Source: an uncultured Clostridia bacterium (GTDB taxonomy: Bacteria > Bacillota > Clostridia > Christensenellales > UBA1242). Taken from it: DNA of 64,000 bases. This document shows positions 7,253-63,602 of this stretch, in pieces (position 1 is the first letter of the stretch; each line of letters opens with the position of its first letter). The notes beneath the pieces were generated by a model, which saw only the letters and a list, made by a program, of their open reading frames with translations, was not told the origin of the DNA and did not search any database. Position numbers and translations under genes: made by a program. The stretch covers positions 4,975 through 68,974 of the forward strand of contig CANQYX010000002.1 in the NCBI GenBank assembly GCA_947628205.1, given 5' to 3'.

Positions 7253-7303
7253 AAAAAACAACTCATAGCGAGTTGTTGCAAAGAAAAAAGGCATTACTGC
7301 CTT
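7253..7303 (-). terminator. Tandem Rho-independent terminators after rplS
   Basis: On the minus strand, aaggcagtaatgcctt plus a T-run (7284-7303) and caactcgctatgagttg plus a T-run (7253-7276). Confidence 0.7.
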
Positions 7304-7643
7304 ATTTAACTTCTTTAACTTTTGCCGCTTTGCCTGAAAGATTGCGAATGTAATATATTTTAGCGCGACGAACTGCACCCTTTCTAACCACAACAATTTT
7401 TTCAATGCGTGGGCTGTTTAGTGGGAAAGTTCTTTCAACGCCAATGCCAAACGAAATGCGCCTTACTGTGAAGTTTTCTCTAACACCGGCACCTTTTTTG
7501 GCAATTACAACGCCTTCGTAGTTTTGAACACGCTCTTTATCCCCTTCTTTGACTTTGTACGAAACACGCACAGTGTCTCCAATATTAAAAGAAGCGAGGT
7601 CGGTTCTAACTTGTTCCTTTTCAAGTTGGTCGATAATAGTCAT
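7302..7643 (-). CDS. rplS: 50S ribosomal protein L19
   Basis: [11 protein letters not shown]...[26 protein letters not shown]. Start set to the ATG at 7643, preceded by a GAAGGAGGT SD; the track ORF has a spurious 17-aa extension. Confidence 0.93.
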
Positions 7644-7708
7644 TTCTACCTCCTTCATTGACGTTCTTATGATTGGACCACAGCGGACCGCCAATATTCA
7701 ACTTGAAT

Positions 7709-7737
7709 ATATTAGCACAAAATTTTACAATTTGCAA
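7709..7737 (-). promoter_or_regulatory. Putative sigma-A promoter of rplS
   Basis: On the minus strand, TTGCAA (7737-7732), a 17-nt spacer, then TAATAT (7714-7709) with an upstream TG. It leaves a leader of roughly 58 nt containing an ATTGG...CCAAT hairpin. Confidence 0.5.
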
Positions 7738-7806
7738 GTGTTTTTTAAAAATTTTTCATAAATTTGTTGTAAATTTTTCATAAATTGGTTGTGTTTATGT
7801 TGAATT

Positions 7807-9151: not shown

Positions 9152-9499
9152 TTAAAACGCGTTTTCTACATGGCGGATGTCGGCATCCGTGTCGCCTAAA
9201 ACGGCGATGGCATCAAAGCGGCAAGGGGTTTCTAGCAAGCCTTTAGATTTTAAATACATTGTGGCAACCATGCGGATTTTGCGCTGCTTTTCATAATTTA
9301 TTGCTTCAAACGGGTCGCCAAACGCGCGGGACATTCTGCCCTTCACCTCAACAAAAACAATTGTGTTGTTAAATCGGGCGATGATGTCTATTTCGCCAAT
9401 TTTGTTTTTATAGTTGTTGGCAATTATTGTGTAACCTTTGCGCTTTAAATAGCTGGTTGCTTTGGCTTCGCACATTTTGCCATAAGTTAAATTATCCAT
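9152..9499 (-). CDS. YraN family (UPF0102) endonuclease-like protein
   Basis: 115 aa. YLKRKGYTIIANNYKNKIGEIDIIA...VFVEVKGR matches the YraN signature. Confidence 0.85.
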   Translation of the reverse strand: MDNLTYGKMCEAKATSYLKRKGYTIIANNYKNKIGEIDIIARFNNTIVFVEVKGRMSRAFGDPFEAINYEKQRKIRMVATMYLKSKGLLETPCRFDAIAVLGDTDADIRHVENAF

Positions 9500-9522: not shown

Positions 9523-9697
9523 GAGATTCTTCACTTCGTTCAGAATGACACCTACCATATTTTTTAACACAAATTGACTAAATGTATATTCAATTTTTAA
9601 AACGACTGAAATAGACCACAGTCATGTTGAGCGTAGTCGAAACATCTCATTTTCTCAAAAAGATTCTTCTCTACGTTCAGAATGACACGAACATCTC
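9523..9697. repeat. Cluster of GAGAT...ATGACA hairpin repeats (yraN-rnhB spacer)
   Basis: 9523-9550 gagattcttcacttcgttcagaatgaca; 9621-9648 gtcatgttgagcgtagtcgaaacatctc (inverted copy); 9661-9687 agattcttctctacgttcagaatgaca; a partial cgaacatctc at 9688-9697. Confidence 0.85.
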
Positions 9698-10316
9698 ATT
9701 TTGCTTGCTTGTCGGCTAGGTTTTTGAGGAATGATAGACGGTGAATTGGTGTTATGCCGAACTTATTTATGGCCTCATAATGCTTTTTTGTGCCGTAACC
9801 AACGTTATTTTCAAAATCATAGTTTGGATAGGTTTTGGCGTATTCTGCCATCAATTTGTCACGATAAACTTTTGCAACAATTGATGCGCAAGCAATGGCG
9901 TAACTTGTGGCATCGCCGTGAATTATTGATTTTTCATTTTCTGCAACATGCAATTTAACAGCGTCAATTAAAAGCAAATCTGGCTTTACAACAAGTTTTT
10001 GATAACTTTCTTTCATTGCCTCGATTGTAGCTTGCAGGATATTAATTTGGTCTATGCACTGATTGTCGCGTTCGGTGATGGAAACTGCCAATGCCTTATT
10101 TAAAATTTGTTTATTTAGTTCCTCTCGCTTTTTTGCGGAAAGTTTTTTGCTATCAAAAACACCATCTATCATTTCGTCATAAGGCATAACCACGCAAGCG
10201 GTTACAACCGGACCAGCAAGCGGGCCGCGCCCAACTTCATCAATGCCGGCAATTGTTTTGATGTTCTTGTTTAATAGATGCTTGTCATATTCAAAAATTT
10301 CTTTTGTGTTTATCAT
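9696..10316 (-). CDS. rnhB: Ribonuclease HII
   Basis: GIDEVGRGPLAGPVV catalytic motif. Start moved to the ATG at 10316 (AAGGA SD); the track ORF extends to 10355. Confidence 0.9.
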   Translation of the reverse strand: MINTKEIFEYDKHLLNKNIKTIAGIDEVGRGPLAGPVVTACVVMPYDEMIDGVFDSKKLSAKKREELNKQILNKALAVSITERDNQCIDQINILQATIEAMKESYQKLVVKPDLLLIDAVKLHVAENEKSIIHGDATSYAIACASIVAKVYRDKLMAEYAKTYPNYDFENNVGYGTKKHYEAINKFGITPIHRLSFLKNLADKQAK

Positions 10317-10357
10317 ATTGTCCTTTTTTATTTTTTTGTTAAGATATCCATGCAATT

Positions 10358-10531
10358 GAGATACACTCCACTCGCTTTATACCCCACCGCGAAGCAAGTT
10401 CTTATGGGGACCCCGAATTTACCCCACTGCGAAGCAAGTTCTTGTGGGGACCCCGAACGCTCGGTTGGTATGACATGACACATTTATTTTATTGCGAGGC
10501 AACTTGACCATCAAGTTGGCGTGGCAATCTC
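10358..10531. repeat. Composite repeat: a GAGATAC-type element carrying two tandem CCCCAC...GTGGGG hairpin modules, followed by an inverted GAGATTGCC-type element
   Basis: gagatacactccactcgct, then two ~40-nt modules (about 10377-10417 and 10418-10457), then cgctcggttggtatgaca (to 10475). 10491-10531 attgcgaggcaacttgaccatcaagttggcgtggcaatctc is the reverse complement of the core of the 12738 copy. Confidence 0.85.
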
Positions 10532-10534
10532 AAA

Positions 10535-11368
10535 TTATTCTAAACAAATTTTGCCGAGTTTACCAGTTCTAAAATCGGTTAGCAAAATTTTTGCCGCGCG
10601 CTCCAAATCAATTTCTCCGCCTTTAACAACGCATCCGCGCTTTTTGCCAATTTGATTTAGTATGTCTATATTTTGAGTATTTTCATTATATACTACACTG
10701 TATTTTGTATTCAAAATGTTTTTATCAATTAAATTTAAGCGATTAATTAGTTCGGTTGCAACCTCTACTAAATTTAGAACTTCGTCTTTAACCGAACCAA
10801 TGATGGCAAGGTTATATGCCTTTTGTTCATCATCAAAATTTGGCAAGAGCACGCCCGGAGTGTCCATAAACTCAATGTTTTCGCTGACCTTAATCCACTG
10901 CTTAGATTTGGTTACGCCGGCGCGGTTACCGGTTACTGCGCGCGCCTTTTTACAAAGATTGTTGACAATTGTGGACTTGCCCGAATTTGGAACGCCAAGT
11001 ACCATTGCGCGCGTTATGAAATTTGCACCTTTAAGTTTGTTTTGCGCTAGCCTAGATTTAAAGATTTTGTTTATTGCATCGATTATAACTTTTGAATTTC
11101 CGCTAACTGTGGCATTAAGGCTAACGCACTGCTGCCCTTGCGAGGTGAAATAATTTTTAAATTTGTCTATGGCAGGTTTGTCAACCAAATCTGCCTTGTT
11201 TAGAACATAAATAATTGGCTTATCTTTAACCACCTTTAAAAATTCTGGGTTAATGCAACTTGTTGGGCAACGTGCATCCAAAACATAAACGAAACAATCG
11301 CAAAGTTTGCTATCGCTTTGCATTTGCTTTAATGTTTTGTTCATGTGCCCCGGAAACCAATTTATCAT
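10535..11368 (-). CDS. rbgA: Ribosome biogenesis GTPase A (RbgA/YlqF)
   Basis: MINWFPGHMNK start, circularly permuted GTPase motifs (LNKADL...GVPNSGKST...DTPG). Confidence 0.9.
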   Translation of the reverse strand: MINWFPGHMNKTLKQMQSDSKLCDCFVYVLDARCPTSCINPEFLKVVKDKPIIYVLNKADLVDKPAIDKFKNYFTSQGQQCVSLNATVSGNSKVIIDAINKIFKSRLAQNKLKGANFITRAMVLGVPNSGKSTIVNNLCKKARAVTGNRAGVTKSKQWIKVSENIEFMDTPGVLLPNFDDEQKAYNLAIIGSVKDEVLNLVEVATELINRLNLIDKNILNTKYSVVYNENTQNIDILNQIGKKRGCVVKGGEIDLERAAKILLTDFRTGKLGKICLE

Positions 11369-11440
11369 AATTTTATATTAGCACAAAATTTTATTTTTTC
11401 AAACTATTTATAAAAAATAAAAAAAACAAAAATTGGCAAC

Positions 11441-11467
11441 AAAAAAACTGCGCTAATTTGCAGTTTT
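11441..11467 (-). terminator. Rho-independent terminator after trmD
   Basis: actgcgctaatttgcagt hairpin flanked by A-run/T-run; on the minus strand it is followed by T7. Confidence 0.6.
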
Positions 11468-11540
11468 AAAAATAATTTAATCATATTTTTAAATTACTTA
11501 GATTTTTGTATTTTTTATTTTATTTTGAATCTGCTTAATT

Positions 11541-12218
11541 TTATTTTTTCAAATTTTTTTTCAATAAATCTGGGCGGTTGCGCTGGGTGATTTCTAGTGA
11601 TTGTTGTTCGCGGAACTCTTTAATTTTTTTATGGTTGCCATTTAAAAGCACTTCTGGCACGGATAAATCTCTAAAAACTGCTGGGCGGGTGTATTGATTA
11701 TATTCAAGCAAACCATTAGAAAAACTTTCTTCTTGCGTGCTTTCCGCCGTTATTGCGTCTGGCAAAAGGCGGATGACCGCATCTGCCACCACCATTGCTG
11801 GCAGTTCGCCACCCGTTAGCACATAATCGCCAATCGAAAGTTCTTGAACTTTAAAATAATCTAAAACGCGCTGGTCTATGCCCTCATAATGCCCACAAAT
11901 TAAGATGATGTGTTTAAATTCTTTCATTTCATTGGCTTTTTCTTGGCAAAAAACGCTGCCGCGTGGGGACATGTAAAAAATTTTGGAACCGCGCTTTTTA
12001 ACGCTTTCAATTGCCTTAAAAAGTGGCTCGCACATCATAACCATGCCGGCGCCACCGCCAAAAGGCTCGTCGTCGCATTTATAGTGTGGCGGAGCGGCAA
12101 AATCACGAATATTGATAATGTTAATTTCGGCAACGCCCTTTTCCACCGCGCGCTTAATTATGCTTTCTTTTAGCGGCGCAAACATTTCTGGGAATAAGGT
12201 TAAAATATCTATTTTCAT
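11541..12218 (-). CDS. trmD: tRNA (guanine37-N1)-methyltransferase TrmD
   Basis: MKIDILTLFPEMF...DDEPFGGGAGMVM...LICGHYEGIDQRV, the classic TrmD motifs. Confidence 0.95.
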   Translation of the reverse strand: MKIDILTLFPEMFAPLKESIIKRAVEKGVAEINIINIRDFAAPPHYKCDDEPFGGGAGMVMMCEPLFKAIESVKKRGSKIFYMSPRGSVFCQEKANEMKEFKHIILICGHYEGIDQRVLDYFKVQELSIGDYVLTGGELPAMVVADAVIRLLPDAITAESTQEESFSNGLLEYNQYTRPAVFRDLSVPEVLLNGNHKKIKEFREQQSLEITQRNRPDLLKKNLKK

Positions 12219-12219
12219 G

Positions 12220-12720
12220 TTACACCCTTACATCTTCAAACCTTTGTTGGTTGATTATAAATGCTTCTAGTTCGGCGTTATATTCAATTATGTCATCAAC
12301 GAAAGGTATTTGATAACTAACCGCACCTGAGCGGATTGTTAGCACTACGCTTGCGCCATAATCGTCAAAATCCACCATCGTGCCGAGTTCTTCGCCGCGC
12401 TCGTTTAAAACCGGCTTGTTGACCAAATCTGACAAATACAATTTGTCTTTAAGTTCGGCATAGTTTGCCCTATCCACAAAAACCGACTGATTTTTGAGTT
12501 TTTCTGCCGCATCGATATTGGGCGCGATGTCCAACCCAATTGAATACGCATCGCCATTAAGTGGCTGGCAATTTGTGATTTTGGCTTTGGTGAGTTTTTC
12601 ACCCACAAAAACATCTTTAAATATAGAAAAATTCACGCCATCAAGGTAACTTAAAATTTTAACTGCACCTTTAATGCCGTGAGTTCGCACAATTTTGCCA
12701 ATTTCTAAAAGATTTTGCAT
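12220..12720 (-). CDS. rimM: 16S rRNA processing protein RimM
   Basis: 166 aa. IGKIVRTHGIKGAVK N-terminus and a PRC-barrel C-terminus. The rimM-trmD pair is conserved. Confidence 0.88.
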   Translation of the reverse strand: MQNLLEIGKIVRTHGIKGAVKILSYLDGVNFSIFKDVFVGEKLTKAKITNCQPLNGDAYSIGLDIAPNIDAAEKLKNQSVFVDRANYAELKDKLYLSDLVNKPVLNERGEELGTMVDFDDYGASVVLTIRSGAVSYQIPFVDDIIEYNAELEAFIINQQRFEDVRV

Positions 12721-12737
12721 TTTTACCTTTTAATGTG

Positions 12738-12930
12738 GAGATTGCCACGCCAACTTGATGGTCAAGTTGCCTCGCAATGACATTGAGATACACTCCACGC
12801 GTTCGCAATGCTCACTTGGTCGGTATGACATACACAATTGTCATGTTGAGCAAAGCGAAACATCTAGATTCTTCGCTTTTACCCCACTGCGCACAAGTGC
12901 TGGTGGGGACCCCGAACGCTCAGAATGACA
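12738..12930. repeat. Array of four GAGAT...ATGACA repeats (rimM-KH spacer), one with a nested hairpin module
   Basis: 12738-12782 GAGATTGCC type; 12785-12830 GAGATAC type; 12840-12865 inverted ATGTT type; 12866-12930 GAGATTCTT type interrupted by tttaccccactgcgcacaagtgctggtggggaccccgaa. Confidence 0.88.
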
Positions 12931-13672: not shown

Positions 13673-14182
13673 ATGGAAGAAAATAACGAACTTTATGAGC
13701 AGTATTTTGAGCAAGTTGTGCACATGTTGGACAATAATGATGTGTTTGAGGAGTTCGATAGCCCAATCAACAACATAAGCACGGAGTTGGCAGCTCAAAC
13801 AAATGCTTATGTTAAAACTATTTGTAAAGATGCCAAATTTAATAATTATATTTTTGCAATTTCGGCGTTGATTACACTGAACATGATGTGCAAAAGGTCT
13901 AATAAATTTTCTGACAGTGACATAGAATTATATGAATTGCCAATTTTCAACGGCTTTTATATCGACACAATTGATTTTGCAAAATACTTTAGCGATTTAT
14001 CTGGCGTAAACCTTGACGACACCTTGCTATATGGTTTTGCTTATGCAAATTACAGCATGAGTTTGGCGGATGAAGATAAAAAACGTTTGAATTTTTATAA
14101 AAAGGAATTGGTAAAACCTCTTAGCAAATATTTTATAAAAGAATATAAATCTGCACGCAAAGCAAGAAGAATTATATATTAA
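13673..14182 (+). CDS. Hypothetical protein (169 aa), no recognisable motif
   Basis: A long ORF on the strand opposite the flanking ffh and rpsP, with its own strong promoter. No motif recognised. Confidence 0.55.
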   Translation: MEENNELYEQYFEQVVHMLDNNDVFEEFDSPINNISTELAAQTNAYVKTICKDAKFNNYIFAISALITLNMMCKRSNKFSDSDIELYELPIFNGFYIDTIDFAKYFSDLSGVNLDDTLLYGFAYANYSMSLADEDKKRLNFYKKELVKPLSKYFIKEYKSARKARRIIY

Positions 14183-14213
14183 AAAAAGAGTTAATTTCCC
14201 TTTTTTTGTTTAT

Positions 14214-15560
14214 TTAGCCACCCATAAGTTTGCGCATCATTGCCATTTTGCCACCATAGGCTTTTGGGTTTTTAAGCATGCGCATTATTTCTTTGCTTTG
14301 ATTAAACTGCTTTAAAAGTGTGTTCACATCGTTGACAGAAACGCCTGCGCCCTTTGCAATGCGTTGGCGGCGGCTGCCGTTGATTATATCTGGATTTTGG
14401 CGTTCTTTGGCAGTCATTGATTGAATTATTGCCTTGTTTTTTTCTAGCATTTTGTCGTCAATCATATTTTCTAGTTGCTTCATTTTGCCGCTAACGCCCG
14501 GCATCATAGACAGAACGGCTTTCAATCCACCCATTTTTTTGAGCGAATTGACTTGCTCAATATAATCATTAAGGTCAAAACTATTTTCGCGGAATTTGCG
14601 TTCCATTTCTTTGGCGGTTTGCTCGTCTACCGCCTCTTGTGCCTTATCTATAAGCGTTAAAACGTCGCCCATGCCAAGAATGCGCGAAGCCATGCGGTCG
14701 GGATAGAATGGCTCTAAGTCAGTCAACTTTTCGCCCACGCCCACAAATTTTATTGGTTTGCCAATAACCGAACGAATTGAAAGTGCTGCGCCGCCGCGAG
14801 TGTCGCCATCCGTTTTGGTGAGAACAACGCCAGTTACATCAAGTGCGTCATTAAATGCTTTAGAAACTGCCACTGCCTCTTGGCCAATCATGGCATCAAT
14901 TACAAGCAAAATTTCGGTTGGATTGATGGCCTTTTTAATTTCTTTAAGTTCATCCATCAACTTTTCGTCTATCTGCAAGCGGCCGGCAGTATCAATAATA
15001 ACAGTATCTAACGCAAATTTGTTGGCATAATCGATGGCCTCTTTAACCGTTTTAACTGGGTTATTTGTGCCGCGCTCAAAAACTTCAATTTGAATTGATT
15101 TGCCAAGAACTTTAAGTTGGTCTATTGCCGCTGGGCGGTAAATATCACACGCAACTAAAAGCGGTTTTTTGTTTTCCTTTTTAAGTTTAAGGGCAAGTTT
15201 GCCGCACAACGTGGTTTTGCCGCTGCCCTGCAAGCCACACATCATAATTATTGTTGGCGGTTTTGGGCTGACGTTTAGTTTTTGGTTATCGCCGCCCATA
15301 AGCGTGGTTAATTCGTCGCGCACAATCTTTATGACCTGCTGAGTTGGGGTTAGGCTTTTTAAAATTTCCTCCCCCTGTGCCTTTTCGCTGACCTTGTTTA
15401 TAAAATCCTTAGCAACGGTGTAGTTTACATCCGCCTCTAAAAGCGCAACGCGGATTTCGCGCATTGCCTCTTTAATTTCAAGCGCGGTTAGTTTGCCGTG
15501 CTTGGTAAGTTTGCTAAAAATATGGTTTAATCGTTCGCTTAAATTTGAAAAGAAAGCCAT
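14214..15560 (-). CDS. ffh: Signal recognition particle protein Ffh (SRP54)
   Basis: GLQGSGKTT, DTAGR and TKTDGDTRGGAALS GTPase motifs with a Met-rich C-terminal M domain. Confidence 0.95.
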   Translation of the reverse strand: MAFFSNLSERLNHIFSKLTKHGKLTALEIKEAMREIRVALLEADVNYTVAKDFINKVSEKAQGEEILKSLTPTQQVIKIVRDELTTLMGGDNQKLNVSPKPPTIIMMCGLQGSGKTTLCGKLALKLKKENKKPLLVACDIYRPAAIDQLKVLGKSIQIEVFERGTNNPVKTVKEAIDYANKFALDTVIIDTAGRLQIDEKLMDELKEIKKAINPTEILLVIDAMIGQEAVAVSKAFNDALDVTGVVLTKTDGDTRGGAALSIRSVIGKPIKFVGVGEKLTDLEPFYPDRMASRILGMGDVLTLIDKAQEAVDEQTAKEMERKFRENSFDLNDYIEQVNSLKKMGGLKAVLSMMPGVSGKMKQLENMIDDKMLEKNKAIIQSMTAKERQNPDIINGSRRQRIAKGAGVSVNDVNTLLKQFNQSKEIMRMLKNPKAYGGKMAMMRKLMGG

Positions 15561-15907
15561 TAATTGTCCTCCAAAATAGATAAAATTTTCTTTATGTCCG
15601 CCTGAGTGAGTGCGGTTTTATCTATAAGTATTTTCTTTATTTTAGCATCTCGGGCAAAAAAATGCAAGTTATTTTCATAGGTTTGCAGCGTGGTTATGGC
15701 TTTATCTAACCCGTCCTTAACCGCTTGGCGAGTGATATTAAGCTCCTCACCCACTTCGGCCAGCGAAAGATTATTGTCCACATACATTGCAACAATTTGG
15801 CGTTGCTTTTCGGTTAGTAGGCAACCATAATATTTTGTTAAAACTGAAATTTTTACTCTATCGTTTATGTTCATATTGATTTTAAAAACGGAAAGTGGCT
15901 TAGACAC
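15560..15907 (-). CDS. ylxM: YlxM family (UPF0122) helix-turn-helix protein
   Basis: LLTEKQRQIVAMYVDNNLSLAEVGEELNITRQAVKD sigma-70 region-4-like HTH. Sits between ftsY and ffh. The true start could be the internal MNIND (15874). Confidence 0.8.
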   Translation of the reverse strand: MSKPLSVFKINMNINDRVKISVLTKYYGCLLTEKQRQIVAMYVDNNLSLAEVGEELNITRQAVKDGLDKAITTLQTYENNLHFFARDAKIKKILIDKTALTQADIKKILSILEDN

Positions 15908-16771
15908 TTACATTAGGATTTTATCTACGAAGTTGTTGGCATCGAAAAGAGACAAATCGTCCACCCCCTCGCCAAAGCCGGTGAAAATGATTGGCACTTT
16001 AAGGTCGTTAATTATTGGATAAACCACCCCGCCTTTACTTGTGCCGTCAAGTTTTGTTAGCACAATGCCATCTATCTGCACGCTATCTTTAAATGCTTTA
16101 ACTTGCGCAATTGAGTTTTGACCGATTGAAGCATCTAGCACAATTAGGTTTAAAAAGTTAGCGGTTGGATATTCGCGCTTGGCAACGTTGTTGATTTTTT
16201 CAAGCTCTTTCATAAGATTTGTTTTAGTGTGCAATCTGCCGGCAGTATCTACAATAAGCACATCCATATTTTTGGCTTTCATGCTGGTTATGGCGTCAAA
16301 CACAACTGACGCACTATCCGCACCTTCGCCTTGTTTGATTATTTTAACCTTCAATTTTTCCGCCCAAGTGTTAAGTTGCTCGGTTGCTGCTGCGCGGAAA
16401 GTATCCCCCGCCGCTAGCAAAACTGACTTTTTGTTTTTTGTAAAAAATTTGGTCATTTTAGCAATGGTGGTGGTTTTGCCCACACCATTTACACCCACAA
16501 CTGTAATTATTAGCGGATAGGAAAAATTTATGTCTTGAACATTCAATTTGTCAATTAAAATTTGTTTAAGTTCGGCTTGTGCGCGCTCGGTGTCCTTAAT
16601 CAATTTTTGCTTACAAGTGTCGCGCAACTCGTCCATTATGTCCATGGCGGTTTCCACGCCCATATCCGACGAAACAAGTAGCGCTTCTAGTTCATCATAA
16701 AAATCATCATCTAGTTCGGTGTGCTTAAAAGTGTATTTTAACTTTTCAAAAAACTTTTTAAATATTCCCAT
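15908..16771 (-). CDS. ftsY: Signal recognition particle receptor FtsY
   Basis: GVNGVGKTTT, DTAGRLH and TKLDGTSKGG motifs. Start set to the ATG at 16771 (GGAG SD); the track ORF extends to 16798. Confidence 0.92.
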   Translation of the reverse strand: MGIFKKFFEKLKYTFKHTELDDDFYDELEALLVSSDMGVETAMDIMDELRDTCKQKLIKDTERAQAELKQILIDKLNVQDINFSYPLIITVVGVNGVGKTTTIAKMTKFFTKNKKSVLLAAGDTFRAAATEQLNTWAEKLKVKIIKQGEGADSASVVFDAITSMKAKNMDVLIVDTAGRLHTKTNLMKELEKINNVAKREYPTANFLNLIVLDASIGQNSIAQVKAFKDSVQIDGIVLTKLDGTSKGGVVYPIINDLKVPIIFTGFGEGVDDLSLFDANNFVDKILM

Positions 16772-16832
16772 TGTTACTCCATATATTGTGTAAAACACTT
16801 GCTAAATACACAGCATTTAGCAAGTGAAAATT

Positions 16833-19800
16833 TTAAGATGCTTTATTTTGTTTTTCTTGTTCTTCGGCAGTTTCGGCAACTTTAACCGCATCTTTAAGTT
16901 TAACTGAAACGATTTTGCTTACGCCTTTTTCTTCCATTGTAACGCCGTACAAACTGTCTGCCACTTCCATGGTTGCCTTTTTGTGGGTGATTACAATGAA
17001 CTGTGTGTTATTTGCAAAATATTTTAAATATTTAGCAAAGCGCTCAATATTTGTGTCGTCAAGTGCCGCCTCAATTTCGTCCAAGAACACGAACGGCATT
17101 GGCTTTAATTTGATTATTGCAAACAAGATTGCAATGGCGGTGATTGTCTTTTCCCCACCGCTTAATAGGCTGATATGTTCAAGCTTTTTCCCCGGTGGCT
17201 GCGCAATAATTTCAACGCCCGCTTTTAATGGGTCTTCATTTGGCAAAATTTCCAACCTAGCATTGCCGCCGCCAAACAAATCTCGAAATGTGCGGGTGAA
17301 GTTATCTTGAATTTTGGCAAATTCGGTGTTAAATTTTTCTAGCATTTCATTTGAAAGGTCACGAATAATTGAAACTGCATCCTCTTCCGCCTTTTTCAAG
17401 TCGGCAATTTGGGCGCTCATTTCTTCATAGCGCGCGCCCTCGCTTTTATACTCTTCAACCGCATTAATGTTTACATAGCCAAGCGCGGTGATTTGGTTTT
17501 TGGTTTTGCTAATTTCCGCTAGGCAGGTTTTGATGTCAAAAGCGTCATCCGCCGTTTTTAGAGGCACACAATCGCTATATGTTAGGCTATACTCTTCCAT
17601 TATGCGCTCTTGCATATTTTCAATGTCTAAATCCACCTTTTGAAGTTTGTTTTCCTCTTGGAAAATGCGGTTGTTTAGGCGAGAAATATCGTTATTTATG
17701 TTGAGTTTTCTATCGTCAATTTCCTTAACTTCATTCATTAAACTTTGTTTAAATTCGTCAAACTGGCTTAGTTTTGTGTTAAGGTCGGCAAGAGTTGATT
17801 GAATTTCGTTAAGTTCACTATCCTGCTCATTAGATTTATTCAAATTGATGGCTTCGTTATAAACGGCTTGCTGGCTAGCAACCTCTTTTTCTAAACGGGC
17901 AATTGAAGTTTTAAGGTTTTCAATTTCCGCTGTTTGAGTTTCTATATTTTTTGTTAATGAATTGATTTTTTCTTCAGCCGAGGCAATTTCAACGCGAGAT
18001 GCCATCATTTTTTCTTGATAGTCATCACGTTTCAATTTAAGTTGCTCATAGGCATTTTTATTCTCTTTAAGTTCGTTAGATTGTGCCTTAGAATTGCTTA
18101 AATCTAACTCGGTTTGGTCGATTGAATTAATTTTGCTGTTTAAATCGTTAACAATGCCAGATGCAACCTTAATTTGCGCTTGTAGTGAGAAAATATCCTC
18201 TTCCAACTTATCTAAATTGGCTTGCAAATTCTCCAAACGAGAATTTTTGGTGTAATATTCTGTGTTGGTTTTTTGCATGCTAGTGTTTTCGTCCGCCAGC
18301 ATGGTTTTAAGCTTTTCCATTGCGCCTAAATATGTTTTTAATTGCCCCTCATTAGTGCGCAATTCTTGCGTGCGGGCTTGAATGTTTTGTTTTAGATTGT
18401 TAATTTCGTTTTCTTTGCCCAAAAGTGAGCCATCTTTGCTTTTTTTGCTGCCACCCGACATGCTGCCCTGTGGCGAAATAACATCGCCGTCAAGCGTAAC
18501 AAGGCGGAAAGCATAGTGTGATTTTATTGCTAGTGCGGTGGCGTTATCTAGCGTATCCACAACCACGGTTGAGCCAAGCAAACTTTCAATAACCGGCCTA
18601 TATACCGCATCTGTTTTAACAAGTTCACTTGCAACACCTATGCAACCTTTTGAGGTTAAATATTGCCTATCTGCCGCCGACAAACTGCGCGTTTTAACCG
18701 CACTTATTGGCAAGAAAGTGGCACGACCACAATTTTGGCTTTTTAAGTAGTTAATTAAAACTTTTGCATCGTCCTCATTTTTGGTTACAATGTTTTGAAT
18801 GCTGCCGCCAAGCACAATTTCAATGGCGGTTTGATATTTTTCCTCCACCTTAATTATGTTGCCAACCACGCCCATAATGGCAGAATTGAGTTGGCTATTA
18901 CGCTTGTTATCCTGCAACAAGCGTTTAACTGCAAGTTGATATCCCTCAAACTCAGTTTGCAAGCTGGTTAGCAAATTAACGCGGTTGGTGTCGTTAGTTA
19001 TAGAGGATTTTAGCGCAAAAATTTTGTCGTTGCACACAGCAATAGCTTGCTCTAATTCCTTTTGTTTAGTTAAGATTTTGCTTGAATTTTCGGCGGATTT
19101 TGTGCGAACTTTGGCAAGATTTTCCACCTCAATTTTAAGTTTTTCAAATTCGGCTTGCGCGCTTTGTTTGGCTTGCTGAGATTGTTCTAACTTTTCGCTA
19201 TCCTGCTTAATATTTTCGGTTAGTGTATCCCGTTTGGCAATGTATGCAGACAAATTTGCCTTAATGTCGGTCAACTTTGCTAAATTATCTATAATTTGGC
19301 GTTGATTTTCCTCTTTTTCGCCTTCGTTTTTGGTTATTTCGTCCACAAGCGCAAAATATTCATCACTAATTTTTTGTGATTGTTTCCTTAATTCAATTAA
19401 TCTATTTTGCTCTTCTTGCTTAAGTGCGGCAGCGTTAGTTACTAGCGCGGTGCGTTGGTTTAAATCTAAATTTTGAGCGTTTAAGTCAGCTGTTAATCTA
19501 TCCAACTGCTCTTTTAAATATTTTGTTTGTTCGCTAAGAAGGCGGCTATCTCCCTGCTTTTTTTCAAGTTTTACGGTATATTGCAAAACTTGTTCATGCA
19601 GGTCGTTAGATTTTTTATCCAGCTGATTGATTTCGTTAAGGGCTTTATCATATTTAGCTTGCTCGGTTTCCAAACTGTTGGTTAAAACGTTTAAATTATC
19701 CCTAAATCCGTCTAATTTTTCTTGAATTCCCTGCTTAGTTTTGGCGGAGTTATCGTACTGATAAATATACGCATTAATTTCCAAATTCTTTAAACTATCG

Positions 19801-20459
19801 CGAAGTTCTAGGTATTTTTTAGCATCCTCACTTTGTTTTTTTAATGGACCTAAGCGGCGCTCAACTTCGGTCATAATATCATTGGCGCGGCTTAAATTGT
19901 CGCGCACCTTTTCCAATCTGCGCTCGGTTTCTTCCTTCCTAGATTTATATTTAGAAATGCCAACTGCCTCTTCAAAAATGATGCGCCTATCCTCTGGCTT
20001 GGATGAAATGATGCTTTCCACCCTGCCTTGCCCGATTATTGAATAACCATCCAAACCCAAGTTGGCATCTTGCAACATTTCGGTTATATCTTTTTTGCGG
20101 CAAATTTGACGATTAATATAATATTCGCTAAGCCCGTTGCGATATAATTTACGGGTTATAACAACCTCTTCATACTCCAAATTAAACCATTTGTTTGAGT
20201 TATCAAAAACAAGCGAAACCTCGCAATAACTTAGCTTTTTGCGCTTTTCGCTGCCGGCAAAAATTACGTCTTGCATGGATTGCCCACGCAATTCTTTGCT
20301 TGATGTTTCCCCCATAACCCAACGGATGGCGTCACTTACATTACTTTTGCCACAACCGTTAGGGCCAACAATAGCGGTTGCGCTGCCGTCAAAAACAATG
20401 TTTGTTTCGTCCGCAAACGATTTGAACCCCACCATGTTAATTTGTTTTAAATTTATCAT
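16833..20459 (-). CDS. smc: Chromosome partition protein Smc
   Basis: N-terminal FKSF...GPNGCGKSN Walker A, long coiled coils with a central hinge, and C-terminal LSGGEKT signature plus FLDEIEAALD Walker B. Start set to MINLKQI (20459). Confidence 0.95.
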   Translation of the reverse strand: MINLKQINMVGFKSFADETNIVFDGSATAIVGPNGCGKSNVSDAIRWVMGETSSKELRGQSMQDVIFAGSEKRKKLSYCEVSLVFDNSNKWFNLEYEEVVITRKLYRNGLSEYYINRQICRKKDITEMLQDANLGLDGYSIIGQGRVESIISSKPEDRRIIFEEAVGISKYKSRKEETERRLEKVRDNLSRANDIMTEVERRLGPLKKQSEDAKKYLELRDSLKNLEINAYIYQYDNSAKTKQGIQEKLDGFRDNLNVLTNSLETEQAKYDKALNEINQLDKKSNDLHEQVLQYTVKLEKKQGDSRLLSEQTKYLKEQLDRLTADLNAQNLDLNQRTALVTNAAALKQEEQNRLIELRKQSQKISDEYFALVDEITKNEGEKEENQRQIIDNLAKLTDIKANLSAYIAKRDTLTENIKQDSEKLEQSQQAKQSAQAEFEKLKIEVENLAKVRTKSAENSSKILTKQKELEQAIAVCNDKIFALKSSITNDTNRVNLLTSLQTEFEGYQLAVKRLLQDNKRNSQLNSAIMGVVGNIIKVEEKYQTAIEIVLGGSIQNIVTKNEDDAKVLINYLKSQNCGRATFLPISAVKTRSLSAADRQYLTSKGCIGVASELVKTDAVYRPVIESLLGSTVVVDTLDNATALAIKSHYAFRLVTLDGDVISPQGSMSGGSKKSKDGSLLGKENEINNLKQNIQARTQELRTNEGQLKTYLGAMEKLKTMLADENTSMQKTNTEYYTKNSRLENLQANLDKLEEDIFSLQAQIKVASGIVNDLNSKINSIDQTELDLSNSKAQSNELKENKNAYEQLKLKRDDYQEKMMASRVEIASAEEKINSLTKNIETQTAEIENLKTSIARLEKEVASQQAVYNEAINLNKSNEQDSELNEIQSTLADLNTKLSQFDEFKQSLMNEVKEIDDRKLNINNDISRLNNRIFQEENKLQKVDLDIENMQERIMEEYSLTYSDCVPLKTADDAFDIKTCLAEISKTKNQITALGYVNINAVEEYKSEGARYEEMSAQIADLKKAEEDAVSIIRDLSNEMLEKFNTEFAKIQDNFTRTFRDLFGGGNARLEILPNEDPLKAGVEIIAQPPGKKLEHISLLSGGEKTITAIAILFAIIKLKPMPFVFLDEIEAALDDTNIERFAKYLKYFANNTQFIVITHKKATMEVADSLYGVTMEEKGVSKIVSVKLKDAVKVAETAEEQEKQNKAS

Positions 20460-20582
20460 TGCTTTTATCCTTATTTGTACTAGGATATTATAGCAAATTA
20501 GCAAAAAAACGCAAAAGATTTTCATTATCTTTTTTGAAATTAGCAAATTTTGTTAGCCGATGTGTAAAAATTTGGACAAAAT

Positions 20583-20604
20583 AAAAACTCGATTTATTTC
20601 GAGT
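20583..20604 (-). terminator. Rho-independent terminator after the 20605-20955 ORF
   Basis: On the minus strand, aaactcgaaataaatcgagttt followed by T5, immediately after the stop codon. Confidence 0.7.
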
Positions 20605-20955
20605 TTAAACGCCATTTATTAAATTAGCGTGATAATTTAAATAATCTTGTTTATAAGTTGTAAAGTTGTTGTTTAAGGTGCGAATCCAGAATTTATTGAT
20701 ATTTTCTAAATTTGAAACAACGAATGCACGGCTATCCAACCATTTTAATTCGCAATAAAAATCGAACAATTCAAAAATTAGCACCCTAACCTTTTTGCCT
20801 TTTTCGTTATAATCAAAAAGTGAAACGACAATTGATTTATCCGAACTTGTTATAATTTCCGCCGTGCCATTGCCATCGCCAAAAAATTTGGGCAGTTGAT
20901 TTATAAACTCTTCGCGCATGCCTTCTGAAAACCGGCTAATGTAACTTTTTCCCAT
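20605..20955 (-). CDS. Hypothetical protein (116 aa)
   Basis: An ORF with its own terminator and a TTGACA-16-TGtTAATAT promoter (20992-20965) only 9 nt from the ATG, with no SD. No motif recognised. Confidence 0.55.
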   Translation of the reverse strand: MGKSYISRFSEGMREEFINQLPKFFGDGNGTAEIITSSDKSIVVSLFDYNEKGKKVRVLIFELFDFYCELKWLDSRAFVVSNLENINKFWIRTLNNNFTTYKQDYLNYHANLINGV

Positions 20956-21001
20956 AACAATTATATATTAACATAAAATATAAATTTGTCAACAGTTTAT
21001 A

Positions 21002-22972
<1,971 letters not shown>

Positions 22973-25237
22973 TTAATCTTTAAATTCAATAGGTGCATAA
23001 TCTAGGCTGAGCATTTTTTCGCCAACCGTATCAAACTTAATTTTAACTGTGTGGTTGGTTGAACCGGGGGTTATCTCCACAATTTTGCCCTCGCCAAACT
23101 TAGGGTGCGTTACAAGCGCGCCTAGTTTGAGTTTGGAATAATCCACCGTCTTTTTCTCAACAGTGTCCTTTTTAAAAGTATAATTATATGATTGATTGTT
23201 GTTTGAACCGATTGTGTTCATATTATCTCCTTTATTAACATAATTATTTGAATAGCGCGTTCCGCTATATTGATTTGAATATTGGCTAACTCCGCCAAAA
23301 CTATTTCTATTATAACTATTATACTGCAAATTAGGCTCGAATTTGCGCTCTTTTGCCAAATCTAGTTCATATAAAAACCTAGATTTTACGCTATACTCGC
23401 GCTTGCCATACATAAAGCGCGAACTGCTTGAGGTTAAAATTAACTCTTTCTTGGCGCGCGTTACTGCAACATACATTAGGCGGCGCTCTTCTTCCAAATC
23501 CTCGCTATCCTCGCGCGAAATGGGGAAGATTTTTTCCTCGCACCCGACCACGAAAACTGTGTTAAATTCAAGGCCCTTTGCGCCATGCACGGTTGCCAAA
23601 ACCACGCCTTTGCCGTCGTCCTCATCCATGGCAGATGATAGTGTTACATTTTGCAAATAGTCAATTATTGTTGCGCCCTCGTTGTTCTCCTCAAACTCCC
23701 TAACCGAATTGACTAATGAGTTAATGTTCAGCAGGCGTTCATATTCTTGCTCGTTATCCTTATCAAACGAATTTAAAATGTTGGCTTGGTTTATCATATA
23801 GGTGAAAAACTCGTAAACGCCCATGTTGTTGATGTTATCATCCAAATCTTTAAGCAAATCTTTAAGCGGTTTAAGTTTATCTTTAAGCGGGCGCGGCAAA
23901 ATTTCGTTTTCGCTGTTCATAACCACGTCTTTAATCGAGCGTTTGCTTGCAGAGGCAATGTCAACCAATTTATCTACGCTAGTTTCGCCTATGCCGCGCT
24001 TTGGAAAGTTGATAATTCTAAGGAAACTAACATCGTCCGTTGGGTTTACCACCGCGGTGAGATATGAAAGCACGCTTTTGATTTCGGCACGCTCAAAGAA
24101 CTTGAAACCGTTGTACATAATGTGCGGAATATTGTAAGTAAGCAACTTTTCTTCAAACGCGCGGGACAAGGCATTTAAGCGCATCAAAATTGCCATTTCG
24201 TTATACGGCACGCCTTGATTATGTTTTTGAATTATCGAGTGGACAACAAAATCTGCCTCATCTGCTTCGTTCATTGCCGGATAATAGAAAACTTCTGCTC
24301 CGTCATCATTGGTTGTATATAATTTTTTATCCAACCTATTTTTATTGTTTTTTATAATAAGGTTTGCGCGCTCCAGAATTTTTTTAGTAGAGCGATAATT
24401 TTGCTCTAATTTGAACACTTTTGCGTCCTTAAAATCGCGCGTGAACTGAAAAATGTTGTCTATATTCGCGCCGCGCCAACCGTAAATTGATTGGTCCTCA
24501 TCGCCTACAATTAAAATATTTCGCGTTTTGCTAGATAGAAGTTTGATGATGTCATATTGCAATTTGTTTGTATCCTGAAATTCGTCCACACTGAAATATG
24601 AATATTTATTTTGTATGCTGGCAAGCACTTCGGCATTTGTGGAAATTAGGTTATAAAAATTTACAAGCAAATCGTCAAAATCCATGGCATTGTTTTTAAT
24701 TAGTTCGTTTTGATAATTTAAATAAAACTTTTCAAACTCGCGCATCGTAGGGTTGTAACTATAAACCTTCATGAACTCGTCAATTGATAAATTTTCATTT
24801 TTAATTGTTGAAATGTTATGTTTGAAATTGGATTTTAACTCCTCATCCGTTATGTTCATTTGCTTAAAAAGTTCTTTAAAAATTTTGTTTGTGTCCGCGT
24901 CCGTAAAAATTGAAAAATTTTCTTTATAGTTTTTTAAAAAACTTGCGTACGTTCTTAGCATTCGGGCGCAAAAACTGTGAAAGGTGCAAACTGTAACCAT
25001 ATTGCCGTTTGGCACAATTCTTTCAATGCGCTCTTTCATTTCGTTGGCGGCTTTGTTGGTGAAAGTTATTGCCAAAATTTTGTGCGCCGGCACGCCGCAA
25101 TCGCTAATTAAATACGCAATTCTATATGTTAAAAGGCGAGTTTTGCCACTGCCCGCGCCTGCGCTAACTAGCACAGGGCCGTCCGTTGCCAACATCGCCA
25201 CATATTGTTCATCGTTAAGTTCTGCCTTGTAGTCCAT
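22973..25237 (-). CDS. pcrA: ATP-dependent DNA helicase PcrA/UvrD family
   Basis: 754 aa. AGAGSGKTRLLTYRIAYL Walker A, VDEFQDTN, NYRST and VTRAKKEL superfamily-1 helicase motifs. The pcrA-ligA pair matches Bacillus. Confidence 0.93.
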   Translation of the reverse strand: MDYKAELNDEQYVAMLATDGPVLVSAGAGSGKTRLLTYRIAYLISDCGVPAHKILAITFTNKAANEMKERIERIVPNGNMVTVCTFHSFCARMLRTYASFLKNYKENFSIFTDADTNKIFKELFKQMNITDEELKSNFKHNISTIKNENLSIDEFMKVYSYNPTMREFEKFYLNYQNELIKNNAMDFDDLLVNFYNLISTNAEVLASIQNKYSYFSVDEFQDTNKLQYDIIKLLSSKTRNILIVGDEDQSIYGWRGANIDNIFQFTRDFKDAKVFKLEQNYRSTKKILERANLIIKNNKNRLDKKLYTTNDDGAEVFYYPAMNEADEADFVVHSIIQKHNQGVPYNEMAILMRLNALSRAFEEKLLTYNIPHIMYNGFKFFERAEIKSVLSYLTAVVNPTDDVSFLRIINFPKRGIGETSVDKLVDIASASKRSIKDVVMNSENEILPRPLKDKLKPLKDLLKDLDDNINNMGVYEFFTYMINQANILNSFDKDNEQEYERLLNINSLVNSVREFEENNEGATIIDYLQNVTLSSAMDEDDGKGVVLATVHGAKGLEFNTVFVVGCEEKIFPISREDSEDLEEERRLMYVAVTRAKKELILTSSSSRFMYGKREYSVKSRFLYELDLAKERKFEPNLQYNSYNRNSFGGVSQYSNQYSGTRYSNNYVNKGDNMNTIGSNNNQSYNYTFKKDTVEKKTVDYSKLKLGALVTHPKFGEGKIVEITPGSTNHTVKIKFDTVGEKMLSLDYAPIEFKD

Positions 25238-25347: not shown

Positions 25348-25464
25348 TGTCATCCTGAGTAAGCGGAGCGCATCGAAGGATCTTGATAACACTCAATGAG
25401 ATTCTTCGCTATTACCCCACTGCGAAATTAATTCTTGTGGGGACCCCGTACGCTCAGAATGATA
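25348..25464. repeat. Two GAGAT...ATGACA-family repeats (pcrA-rpsU spacer), one with a nested hairpin module
   Basis: 25348-25383 tgtcatcctgagtaagcggagcgcatcgaaggatct (inverted ATCCT type). 25398-25464 gagattcttcgct[attaccccactgcgaaattaattcttgtggggaccccgta]cgctcagaatgata. Confidence 0.85.
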
Positions 25465-25493
25465 TCGGCGTAAAACACCGAAACATCTGTAAA

Positions 25494-26818: not shown

Positions 26819-26939
26819 AGATACACTCCACGCGTTCGCGATGCTCACTTGGTCGGTATGACATGTCAGCAAGAGCCAGCATGGCAATCTCTACCTTTAA
26901 AAATGTCATTCTGAGCGAGCAAAGCGAGCTGAAGAACTC
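26819..26939. repeat. Three GAGAT...ATGACA-family repeats (HIT-mtaB spacer)
   Basis: 26819-26863 agatacactccacgcgttcgcgatgctcacttggtcggtatgaca; 26864-26891 tgtcagcaagagccagcatggcaatctc (inverted, degenerate); 26904-26939 tgtcattctgagcgagcaaagcgagctgaagaactc (inverted; overlaps the mtaB stop). Confidence 0.8.
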
Positions 26940-28188
26940 AACCTTTTATTTCGCCTTTCATGCCGTCTAAATATGGCTCGGTTAGGGTTATATCGTAAAT
27001 TTCCCCAAGTTTGAGTTTAGTTGGTATGTAGGTATATATATAATTATCAGTATAGCCCAAACTGAAATTTTGGTCAACTAATTCAACCAAAACTTTGTGA
27101 GTTGTGTTTATATTTTGGCTGAAAAACGCATTTTTAAACTGATTGTTGAGTTCAATAAGCAGTTTTTCGCGCTGTTTTTTTGTGGCTTTATCCACCTTTG
27201 GCGCGTTTAACTTAAGGGCGACTGTGCCGGCGCGTTCGCTATACGGGAATATGTGCATAAAACTGAAATTGATTTTTTTCAAATTTTCAACCGTTGTGTT
27301 GAATTCCTCGTCCGTTTCGCCAACAAAGCCAACAATGATGTCGGTTGAAATTGATGCATTTTTGAAAATTTTGCGGATTTTTTGCGTTGTTTCAATAAAC
27401 TGCTCGATTGTATATCGCCTATTCATGCGTTTGAGGGTCTCGTTGCAAGCGGACTGCAAACTAAGGTGAAAATGTGGGCAGAAATTTTTGCATTGCTTTA
27501 AGGTTTTTAGCATTTCATCGTCCAGCACATTGCACTCTAACGAGGATAAGCGGAAGCGTTTGCCGCACTTATCCACGGCCGCAACAAGCGTTTTTAGCGC
27601 GAGTTTGCCATCAATTTTATAGTCACTCATATTTATGCCAGTTAGCACAATTTCTTGCGCTTTGGTGCTGGCAATTTCGTCAATAATATCTGCCAAATCG
27701 CGGCTGCGGCTGCGGCCACGCACATACGGGATGAGGCAATAAGTGCAAAAATAATCACAACCATCTTGAATTTTTATAAATTGTCGGGTGCGCGTTTCAA
27801 TTGGGCGCGAGGTGTTGGTATATTTATTATGAACAATATCTGGCAAAGTTTTGTTTGGTTTGTTTACAAACGCCATAATATCATTTTTGCCGGCGTTGCC
27901 AAGAACAGCAAAAACATTTTTATTTTTTAAAAATTGAGCCGGGTTATTTTGCGCCGCACAACCGCAAACGATAATTTTTGCGTTTTTATTGAGTTTTAAA
28001 ATTTTGGTGAGTGTTTGCCTAGATTTTTGCTCGGCAGTGTTGGTTACCGCGCAAGTGTTTAGCACATAAACATCTGCTTTAACAAACCCTTCGGCAATTT
28101 CATACCCCGCCGATTTTAGTTGGTTTAAAATGGACTGGCTTTCATATTCATTCACCTTGCAACCTAAGGTTACCACACTAGCAATCAT
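26938..28188 (-). CDS. mtaB: tRNA methylthiotransferase, MiaB-like (MtaB family)
   Basis: N-terminal UPF0004 Cys residues (LGCKVNEYES...NTCAV...CGC) and the radical-SAM motif CDYFCTYC. Next to rsmE, like B. subtilis yqeV-yqeU. Confidence 0.85.
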   Translation of the reverse strand: MIASVVTLGCKVNEYESQSILNQLKSAGYEIAEGFVKADVYVLNTCAVTNTAEQKSRQTLTKILKLNKNAKIIVCGCAAQNNPAQFLKNKNVFAVLGNAGKNDIMAFVNKPNKTLPDIVHNKYTNTSRPIETRTRQFIKIQDGCDYFCTYCLIPYVRGRSRSRDLADIIDEIASTKAQEIVLTGINMSDYKIDGKLALKTLVAAVDKCGKRFRLSSLECNVLDDEMLKTLKQCKNFCPHFHLSLQSACNETLKRMNRRYTIEQFIETTQKIRKIFKNASISTDIIVGFVGETDEEFNTTVENLKKINFSFMHIFPYSERAGTVALKLNAPKVDKATKKQREKLLIELNNQFKNAFFSQNINTTHKVLVELVDQNFSLGYTDNYIYTYIPTKLKLGEIYDITLTEPYLDGMKGEIKG

Positions 28189-29611: not shown

Positions 29612-29639
29612 GAGATTCTTCGCTCCGCTCAGAATGACA
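29612..29639 (+). repeat. Minimal ('empty') GAGATTCTT-type repeat
   Basis: gagattcttcgctccgctcagaatgaca. This is the same element as at 12866 and 25398, but without the nested hairpin module between the two CGCT motifs. Confidence 0.85.
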
Positions 29640-30690: not shown

Positions 30691-30704
30691 TGTATGTTTT
30701 TAAT

Positions 30705-30748
30705 AGATTGCCACGCGATTTTTATGGTAAAAATCTCTCGCAATGACA
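30705..30748 (+). repeat. GAGATTGCC-type repeat with a variable stem and TGG loop
   Basis: agattgccacgc-gattttta-tgg-taaaaatc-tctcgcaatgaca. Confidence 0.85.
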
Positions 30749-52467: not shown

Positions 52468-52512
52468 GAGATTGCCACGGCAAAATCATGGTGATTTTGC
52501 CTCGCAATGACA
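52468..52512 (+). repeat. GAGATTGCC-type repeat in the dnaK-dnaJ spacer
   Basis: gagattgccacg-gcaaaatca-tgg-tgattttgc-ctcgcaatgaca. Confidence 0.88.
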
Positions 52513-63599: not shown

Positions 63600-63602
63600 A
63601 AA

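Follow-up and report, generated by a model that had tools for sequence, protein, structure and literature searches.

Which enzyme, if any, is served by a family of short imperfect palindromes that recurs between the genes of an uncultured gut Clostridia bacterium (Christensenellales)? The question is raised by a 64-kb stretch of its DNA (contig CANQYX010000002.1, positions 4,975 to 68,974; hereafter the window). A sequence-only reading had likened these palindromes to repetitive extragenic palindromes (REPs) and bacterial interspersed mosaic elements (BIMEs) mobilised in trans by a REP-associated tyrosine transposase (RAYT). That reading is right in kind and wrong in its partner enzyme. Within the TGTC-tagged REPs, or Ssn-related hairpins, the window repeats form a subfamily with A/T-rich stems and mismatches, one that the published motif for those hairpins misses. 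We consider it probable that the repeats belong with these TGTC-tagged REP, NTS and SRM (Ssn-related motif) hairpins and with a partner nuclease of the Ssn type.

Palindromes, tags and SsnA-family genes

REPs are split into GTAG-tagged and CGTC-tagged superfamilies. The latter is defined by an unpaired 5′ tag, CGTC or its variants TGTC and CCTC, directly before a palindrome whose stem positions 1-2 are complementary A-T residues; it comprises families CGTC-1 to CGTC-4, includes Neisseria dRS3 and Rickettsia RPE-4 and RPE-6, and shows no association with RAYTs or IS200 across more than 80 species (Di Nocera et al. 2013, PMC3733652). CGTC/TGTC-tagged REPs were renamed NTS or SRM in 2025 (Chenal et al., Nat Commun 2025, PMC11893778). 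The Neisseria NTS, CGTCATTCCCGCGMAVGCGGGAATCYRG, is bound and cut by SsnA. This GIY-YIG nuclease has a single domain and 94 aa, and its own gene is bracketed by NTS. SsnA acts on single-stranded DNA (ssDNA) only; double-stranded DNA, RNA and the opposite strand are not substrates. It nicks a few nucleotides upstream of the palindrome, and in mutagenesis binding hinged on the C right after the palindrome, cleavage on the three bases that precede it. In Neisseria the enzyme modulates integration of transforming DNA, and more widely SRM hairpins flank 71% of SsnA homologues (PMC11893778).

The window units are read most clearly on the strand opposite to the one first described, as (T)GTC, then AT-xxx…x'x'x'-AT, then C-TC. 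Their five stem types, already recognised in the sequence-only reading, are ATTCT/AGAAT in T1 (TGTCATTCTGAGCG-loop-CGAAGAATCTC), ATTGC/GCAAT in T2 (TGTCATTGCGAG-inner hairpin-GTGGCAATCTC), ATAC/GTAT in T3 (TGTCATACC…GGAGTGTATCTC), ATGTT/AACAT in T4 and ATCCT/AGGAT in T5, the last two otherwise as T1. Every stem opens and closes with AT. The TGTC tag is present in 16 of about 20 units, degenerate copies carrying AGTC, ATC or TTTT, and no window unit has a GTAG tag. The 3′ tail of 3 nt reads CTC, often extended to CTCAACC, where the superfamily consensus is CCA; CTC tails also occur beside an SsnA-like locus (L426). Outside the palindrome, conservation in the window units is highest at the GTC before it and the C after it; the coincidence of these bases with the SsnA cleavage and binding determinants supports membership in the Ssn group. 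The published SRM expression matches no window unit; membership was therefore not taken as given, and the association with ssn genes was examined.

A query consensus for SsnA-like proteins retrieves a very large family of ~95-aa GIY-YIG proteins. In a tblastn search one member (P0008) also matches the N. gonorrhoeae orthologue, whose gene, bracketed by canonical NTS, is a positive control. Plasmid p1 of Planktothrix agardhii carries a GIY-YIG gene 48% identical to the N. gonorrhoeae SsnA orthologue (E 2e-28), with a product that matches the Pfam GIY-YIG domain. This gene has arrays on both sides in which TGTCATTCTGAGTGAAACGAAGAATCTCT (T1) and T5-type units are joined tail-to-tail, and all such hairpins in 50 kb fall within 3.5 kb of it. 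The window shows this T5/T1 heterodimer layout at 25348/25398. Metagenomic homologues P0019 and P0060 are likewise flanked by T5 and T1 units, TGTCATCCTGAGCAACAGCGAAGGATCTAG and TAGATTCTTCACTTCGTTCAGAATGACA. Bracketing of SsnA-family genes by T1 and T5 is seen in plasmid p1 and in contigs L449-L458, and the window unit at 9523-9550 is identical at 27 of 28 positions to a hairpin flanking the SsnA-family gene in L449. A Kuenenbacteria SsnA-family gene has TGTCATTGCCCGA…/TGTCATCCTCGGA… hairpins on both sides, of the form (C/T)GTCAT…ATCC and within 150 bp, their stems covarying. Among viral SsnA-like genes, 11-12 of 24 have (C/T)GTCAT…ATCC hairpins within 150 bp, in six covarying stem variants. 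GIY-YIG genes of the UPF0213/YhbQ type, taken as a specificity control at 80 viral loci, were rejected as partners (0 of 80 with hairpins above background).

SsnA-family cassettes and their hairpins also occur inside defence operons (L448, the Planktothrix plasmid p1 locus, 13848-23369; L449-L456). One lies between an MmeI-like gene and drmA of a DISARM system and another between hsdM and hsdS of a type I restriction-modification system; two more hairpin clusters fall within an annotated MmeI coding region. At L445 (1185-1500 and 1786-2100) the 5′ half-site alone is duplicated in tandem (TGTCATTCTGAG plus 11 nt, three copies) ahead of complete hairpins beside an ssn-like gene; these duplications may be footprints of repeated cleavage and repair.

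On the Ssn reading each unit would be a strand-specific module consisting of an unpaired (T/C)GTC, an AT…AT palindrome, and a C with a short tail (CTC here), its interior free to vary while self-complementary. Exposed as a single strand, the module would fold into a hairpin to be bound and nicked by an SsnA-type nuclease, by analogy with what was shown for Neisseria (PMC11893778). Because 81% of SRM-rich genomes (those with >200 SRMs) have an SsnA homologue (PMC11893778), the source genome would be expected to encode an Ssn-type nuclease outside the window. The window hairpins would then be recognition sites of that nuclease and would have spread by an ssDNA-based process linked to it. The different stem types may match several nuclease specificities or one relaxed specificity.

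Several observations weigh against this assignment. The published motif, HGTCWYN(0-2)YYVSBRHN(0-5)WNVSBRGN(0-2)RNCYNB, has 0 matches in the window; the T1, T4 and T5 consensus sequences fail it, and the canonical NTS passes. Unlike classical CGTC REPs, the units have A/T-rich stems with mismatches, and the short ones fold weakly. Most described SsnA homologues come from Gram-negative lineages (PMC11893778). A GIY-YIG gene is absent from the 64-kb window, from 80 syntenic loci of relatives and from ~1.7 Mb of hairpin-bearing loci, and the partner in the source genome is therefore one that we infer only. Many phage contigs carry the hairpins without an ssn gene, which does not simply fit a model of restriction targets.

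Repeat units and other features of the window

The literal pattern GAGAT-N(10-40)-ATGACA has 8 exact matches in the window; 0.27 would be expected, and none of 100 shuffles gave as many. A looser scan with outer bases and length relaxed, followed by hand curation, gave 20 full or near-full units and 3 fragments. The coordinates reported earlier all check out; further copies came to light in degenerate form (26863, 26904 and 63513) and as fragments (9687 and 25463). The flanks described as invariant GAG...GACA prove near-invariant, not strictly so: the core is AGAT…ATGAC, with the outer G replaced in 9661, 12866, 25384, 26819 and 30704, and GACA altered in 9620, 25463 and 63557. The units, fragments and nested hairpins (N, described below) are as follows.

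9523-9550, minus: T1 unit, TGTCATTCTGAACGAAGTGAAGAATCTC on the minus strand; 24 nt upstream of the yraN start
9620-9648, plus: T4 unit, AGTCATGTTGAGCGTAGTCGAAACATCTC; tail-to-tail dimer with 9661
9661-9687, minus: T1 unit
9687-9698, plus: T4 3′-half fragment, ACGAACATCTCA; its tail gives the rnhB stop TGA (minus strand, 9696-9698)
10358-10475, minus: T3 unit, TGTCATACC…GGAGTGTATCTC; holds two nested N hairpins
10380-10414, minus: nested N hairpin, copy 1, GGGGTCCCCAT…GTGGGGTA on the minus strand
10420-10454, minus: nested N hairpin, copy 2
10487-10531, plus: T2 unit with degenerate tag (TTTT replaces TGTC); head-to-head with 10358
12738-12782, minus: T2 unit with long inner hairpin CAACTTGA-CCA-TCAAGTTG; DNA fold -11.7 kcal/mol
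12785-12830, minus: T3 unit
12839-12866, plus: T4 unit; abuts the following unit tail to tail (ATCTAGAT)
12866-12930, minus: T1 unit; N hairpin 12880-12913 nested in the loop
25348-25384, plus: T5 unit, TGTCATCCTGAG…CGAAGGATCT; tail-to-tail heterodimer with 25398
25398-25463, minus: T1 unit; nested N hairpin 25413-25447; degenerate tag ATCAT
25463-25490, plus: fragment with a T4-like 3′ half at its end, CGAAACATCT
26819-26864, minus: T3 unit; ~23 nt upstream of the start of a HIT-family gene
26863-26891, plus: degenerate T2 unit, …GGCAATCTC
26904-26939, plus: degenerate T1 unit; its tail gives the stop of the MtaB-like gene, 26938-26940
29612-29639, minus: T1 unit, canonical short form, TGTCATTCTGAGCGGAGCGAAGAATCTC
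30704-30748, minus: T2 unit, covarying inner stem GATTTTTA/TAAAAATC
52468-52512, minus: T2 unit in the dnaK-dnaJ spacer; inner stem covaries, GGCAAAATCA/TGATTTTGCC
63421-63455, minus: T2 short unit, purine-rich loop GGAACGAAGTGAT
63464-63502, minus: T1 long unit, loop GGAACGAAGTGAAGT
63513-63557, minus: degenerate T2 unit, AGTCATCGCGAAG…TGTGCAATCTCA
63561-63599, minus: T1 long unit

Together the units make up 956 bp with 48.5% G+C (window G+C is 38%), at a density of about one per 3 kb. They include near-identical pairs (63464 and 63561; 12785 and 26819 at 98%) and degenerate or truncated copies (9687, 10487, 25463, 26863, 26904 and 63513). As had been claimed, placement is extragenic: a half-site scan of the window finds every 5′ half inside 9 intergenic spacers and nowhere else. 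All copies lie between co-directional genes, several of them inside operons (rnhB-yraN, KH-rimM, dnaK-dnaJ), and the repeat tail, ATCTCA, indeed provides the stops of two genes, rnhB (9696-9698) and the MtaB-like radical-SAM gene (26938-26940). The TGTC strand is the window minus strand in 15 of 21 units. All flanking genes have the minus strand as their sense strand. The GC skew, negative throughout, makes this strand the probable lagging-strand template as well; TGTC-strand bias, gene sense and replication strand are inseparable within 64 kb.

Each unit has an outer stem of 4-5 bp, then a 2x2 or 2x3 internal loop, then a further 2-10 bp, closed by loops of 3 to >80 nt. The pyrimidine mismatches noted earlier, T.C and C.C, are real and on the TGTC strand appear as tandem G.A/A.G in T1, T4 and T5 and as G.G in T2. 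Loops of T1 are either 3 nt or a purine-rich 15 nt. In T2 the arms of the inner hairpin covary between copies around a constant CCA loop (CAACTTGA/TCAAGTTG, CAAAATCA/TGATTTTG, GATTTTTA/TAAAAATC). Units are arranged as tail-to-tail and head-to-head heterodimers and also as direct arrays. Folding-energy asymmetry between strands is uninformative: the TGTC strand folds more stably in only 14 of the 20 units, and the mean difference is 0.5 kcal/mol.

Full-text searches with the repeat sequence words returned only PCR primers. Among these, 16S 27F-like strings matching GCTCAGGATGA are a coincidence, and the resemblance to the 16S string is confined to T5. Kinship with the 5′ end of 16S rRNA, the hammerhead core or the kink-turn was rejected on inspection, since just the tandem G.A is shared.

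Other features of the window stand apart from the repeats. Upstream of a gene for a BspA-type leucine-rich-repeat surface protein (61547-63211, minus), a C10 homopolymer at 63292-63301, which reads G10 on the gene strand, separates a TTGACA box from a TAACAT/TATATA box, a layout typical of a phase-variable promoter spacer. Two overlapping open reading frames (ORFs) at 37313-38454 (minus) correspond to positions 1-76 and 72-141 of the Methyltransf_32 profile, which points to a methyltransferase gene that is split or frameshifted. The RNase P RNA gene (63757-64000, minus) is cut by the window end, and just downstream of it a long G+C-rich imperfect palindrome at 63600-63680 (GGGCTTTGC…GCAAAGCCC, inner GGCGGT…ACCGCC) may be a terminator. 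Short A/T-rich 11-nt periodic repeats (…TTTTTCATAAATTTGTTGTAAATTTTTCATAAATT…) occupy 7730-7797, in the spacer upstream of the ORF at 7302-7694.

Gain, spread and competing explanations

A TrmD query leads to syntenic loci in gut metagenome-assembled genomes labelled uncultured Clostridia, Christensenella and Candidatus Onthoplasma, the best TrmD match being 94% identical at the protein level. Synteny is kept among these relatives and the arrays are not: units are present in only 6 of 80 syntenic loci, and the sister loci L122 (11.5 kb) and L123 (20.7 kb) are free of them. The rimM-KH spacer measures 219 bp in the window and 18 bp in L122 and is absent in L123. The yraN-rnhB spacer shrinks from 196 bp in the window to ~7 bp in L123, and the rnhB-GTPase spacer from 212 to 49 bp. 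A further relative, L124, has a lone T2 unit at the site where the window has T1-T4-T1. Since sister genomes have none of these arrays in the corresponding spacers, the arrays are lineage-specific and recent, either gained here or lost repeatedly in relatives. The rnhB C-terminus differs between the window and L123, and insertion altered the last codons of the gene. Junctions between filled and empty spacers are too unclean to reveal a target-site duplication. A miniature inverted-repeat element of a DDE transposon was rejected on the same comparison, which shows no clean duplication, and on the outermost bases, TGTC and CTC, which are non-complementary. YraN, a UPF0102 nuclease-like protein encoded next to an array (9152-9499), was rejected as partner because its gene is also found in repeat-free relatives.

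The hairpins extend well beyond this lineage. The T1/T5 pattern, AGATNNTTCG-N(3-33)-CTCANNATGAC, with the covarying dinucleotides left free, matches at least 120 IMG/VR contigs, and the T2 clamp pattern likewise matches at least 120 viral contigs. Among the matches listed, 148 of 172 have complementary free NN/NN (chance, 1/16), with TC/GA in 77, CC/GG in 60 and GC/GC in 7, so that the stem complementarity first proposed from the window holds in more copies. Also among the matches listed, T2 interiors closed by 4 bp or more amount to 58%, compared with 6.6% for shuffled interiors; the distinct interiors number 124, a self-complementary hairpin that differs in most copies. Portal, capsid and tail-fibre genes mark these contigs as true phage fragments. 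Genes between inverted repeat pairs in viral contigs were considered as partners and rejected, since they proved to encode portal, capsid, tail-fibre and helix-turn-helix proteins. T3 was not found in viral contigs, its 7 matches looking like chance or coding sequence. A Halomonas replicon, too, contains a T2-like heterodimer. BLAST of an array against plasmids and phages, a search insensitive for 30-nt units, gave few short matches (Halomonas, Fischerella and human-gut phage contigs).

If the hairpins acted mainly as RNA elements, stabilising, processing or terminating operon transcripts from intercistronic positions, the link with the nuclease would be incidental. Their placement between co-directional genes and within operons is what such a role would predict, as are the covarying interiors and the coincidence of the G.A-containing strand with the sense strand in 15 of 21 copies, and many CGTC-type REPs have been argued to be transcribed (Di Nocera et al., PMC3733652). 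The sense preference of the window is, however, missing from viral contigs, where the two orientations between co-directional ORFs stand at 21 vs 22. T-runs do not follow the hairpins in the window, Rfam at gathering thresholds returns only RNase P RNA and tRNAs there and no match on the repeats, and the short T1 and T4 units fold weakly (-1 to -2 kcal/mol as DNA). The orthologous operons of sister genomes lack the arrays, and SsnA leaves the RNA form unbound (PMC11893778). A primary role in RNA is thus unlikely, and RNA effects are possible as a side consequence.

The hairpins could instead be orphans, neutral sequences brought in by recombination or phages, or left behind after loss of a nuclease gene, with no partner in the genome. 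Degeneration or truncation marks several copies, phage contigs that carry no ssn are rich in hairpins of these types, and 19% of genomes with >200 SRMs have no SsnA homologue (PMC11893778). Set against this are the high density of the units, the many intact and near-identical copies and the absence of the arrays from close relatives, which indicate recent amplification over old relics and make orphan status quite improbable.

Mobilisation in trans by a RAYT (IS200/IS605-like Y1 HUH) encoded elsewhere in the genome, as for classical REPs and BIMEs, would account for imperfect palindromes with conserved unpaired flanks, for extragenic arrays in both orientations, and for the 15 of 21 copies that place one strand on the probable lagging-strand template as IS200/IS605-type elements do, but it is very improbable, because the tag is TGTC-AT and not GTAG, the CGTC class lacks any RAYT or IS200 association (PMC3733652), and the genes bracketed by T1 and T5 units are of the SsnA family and not RAYTs. 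As the sequence-only reading had stated, no RAYT or IS200-type gene was found in the window, nor was one found in the loci examined except L094 (tblastn with IS200 TnpA and E. coli RAYT queries). L094 is a phage-like contig with a terminase gene, and its RAYT-like Y1 gene (216 aa; 1000-1900) has REPs of its own on both sides (GGCGCAGGCTTCCAGCCTG…); these are unrelated to the TGTC hairpins, which sit 4 kb off.

The window also holds a second hairpin, N, of the form GGGGTCCCCAC-variable stem-loop-stem-GTGGGGTA, which is unrelated to the T units and has GTC directly before its palindrome. Its 4-5 window copies are nested in T1 and T3 loops (10380-10414, 10420-10454, 12880-12913, 25413-25447). In metagenomes N occurs in at least 120 contigs from peat, soil and sediment (L293-L412) with strongly covarying inner stems; viral contigs gave 0. 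At least 10 metagenomic contigs have N nested in TGTC-type hairpins with various stems, and in every nested case, window copies included, N is co-oriented with its host hairpin. Elsewhere it is sometimes flanked by short direct repeats. In peat and soil metagenomes N is inserted in frame in orthologous radical-SAM genes (L303, L313, L343, L353, L389, L402), adding ~11 residues (GVPTDRSSSVG) with duplication of the flanking Tyr-Glu-Pro codons. Clustering of 695 neighbouring ORFs gave no N-associated gene, only this orthologous radical-SAM gene with its in-frame insert, and a full-text literature search for N gave nothing relevant. These observations prompt a speculation that we hold to be rather unlikely, namely an actively expanding hairpin-in-hairpin system in which T1-T5 would be spread by an Ssn-type nuclease that mobilises them besides any restriction-like role, and N would be a second ssDNA element preferring the loops of TGTC hairpins and entering them in one orientation only. 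If true, the pair of T unit and N would be the first handle on how SRM and NTS multiply, and might explain the abundance of hairpins in phage genomes. Elhai et al. are said to have described, in 2008, cyanobacterial small dispersed repeats inserted inside other repeats, a likeness to N in the loops of T1 and T3.

Comparison with known repeat families

An important consequence of the Ssn assignment is a corrected annotation, in which the hairpins belong to an Ssn/NTS system and not to RAYT-dependent REPs; gene callers often translate such hairpins into spurious small ORFs. The published SRM pattern under-counts the family, for it misses the A/T-rich mismatch subfamily (T1, T2, T4 and T5), which ranges over a Bacillota gut bacterium, cyanobacteria and phage contigs, and surveys of Ssn partners and specificities are therefore incomplete. 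Spacers found both filled and empty, together with a nested second hairpin, provide a natural system for studying how repeats spread. The finding alone reveals no new kind of system.

With NTS and SRM the window units share the GTC tag, the palindrome starting with AT, the C after it and a strand-specific orientation; near-identical hairpins bracket SsnA-family genes, and copies are found in hundreds, clustered around genes. They differ in A/T-rich stems broken by tandem G.A or G.G, in a CTC tail in place of CYRG, and in loops that run from 3 to >80 nt and may hold a second nested hairpin. The host differs as well, being a gut Clostridia bacterium of Gram-positive lineage with no ssn gene found in its 64-kb window.

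The likeness to CGTC-tagged REPs lies in the CGTC/TGTC tag, the AT at stem positions 1-2, the unpaired 3-nt tail, the lack of a RAYT, the head-to-head and tail-to-tail heterodimers, and the position between co-directional ORFs with occasional overlap of gene ends. Classical members differ in having uninterrupted G+C-rich stems of 8-9 bp, loops of 4-5 nt and a CCA tail. They have been reported from Proteobacteria, Chlorobi, Bacteroidetes, Spirochaetes and Thermotogae and not from Bacillota, to which the host of the window belongs.

GTAG-tagged REPs and BIMEs with their RAYTs resemble the window repeats in kind, as short imperfect extragenic palindromes set in arrays and in both orientations, with a polarity given by an unpaired tag, a presumed recognition of ssDNA hairpins and a partner gene bracketed by its own repeats. 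The two differ in the tag itself and in the enzyme, an HUH Y1 transposase as opposed to a GIY-YIG nuclease. GTAG REPs are also usually species-specific, whereas T1, T2 and T5 are found near-unchanged across very different environments and phages, and it is this breadth that led us to suspect a different kind of partner.

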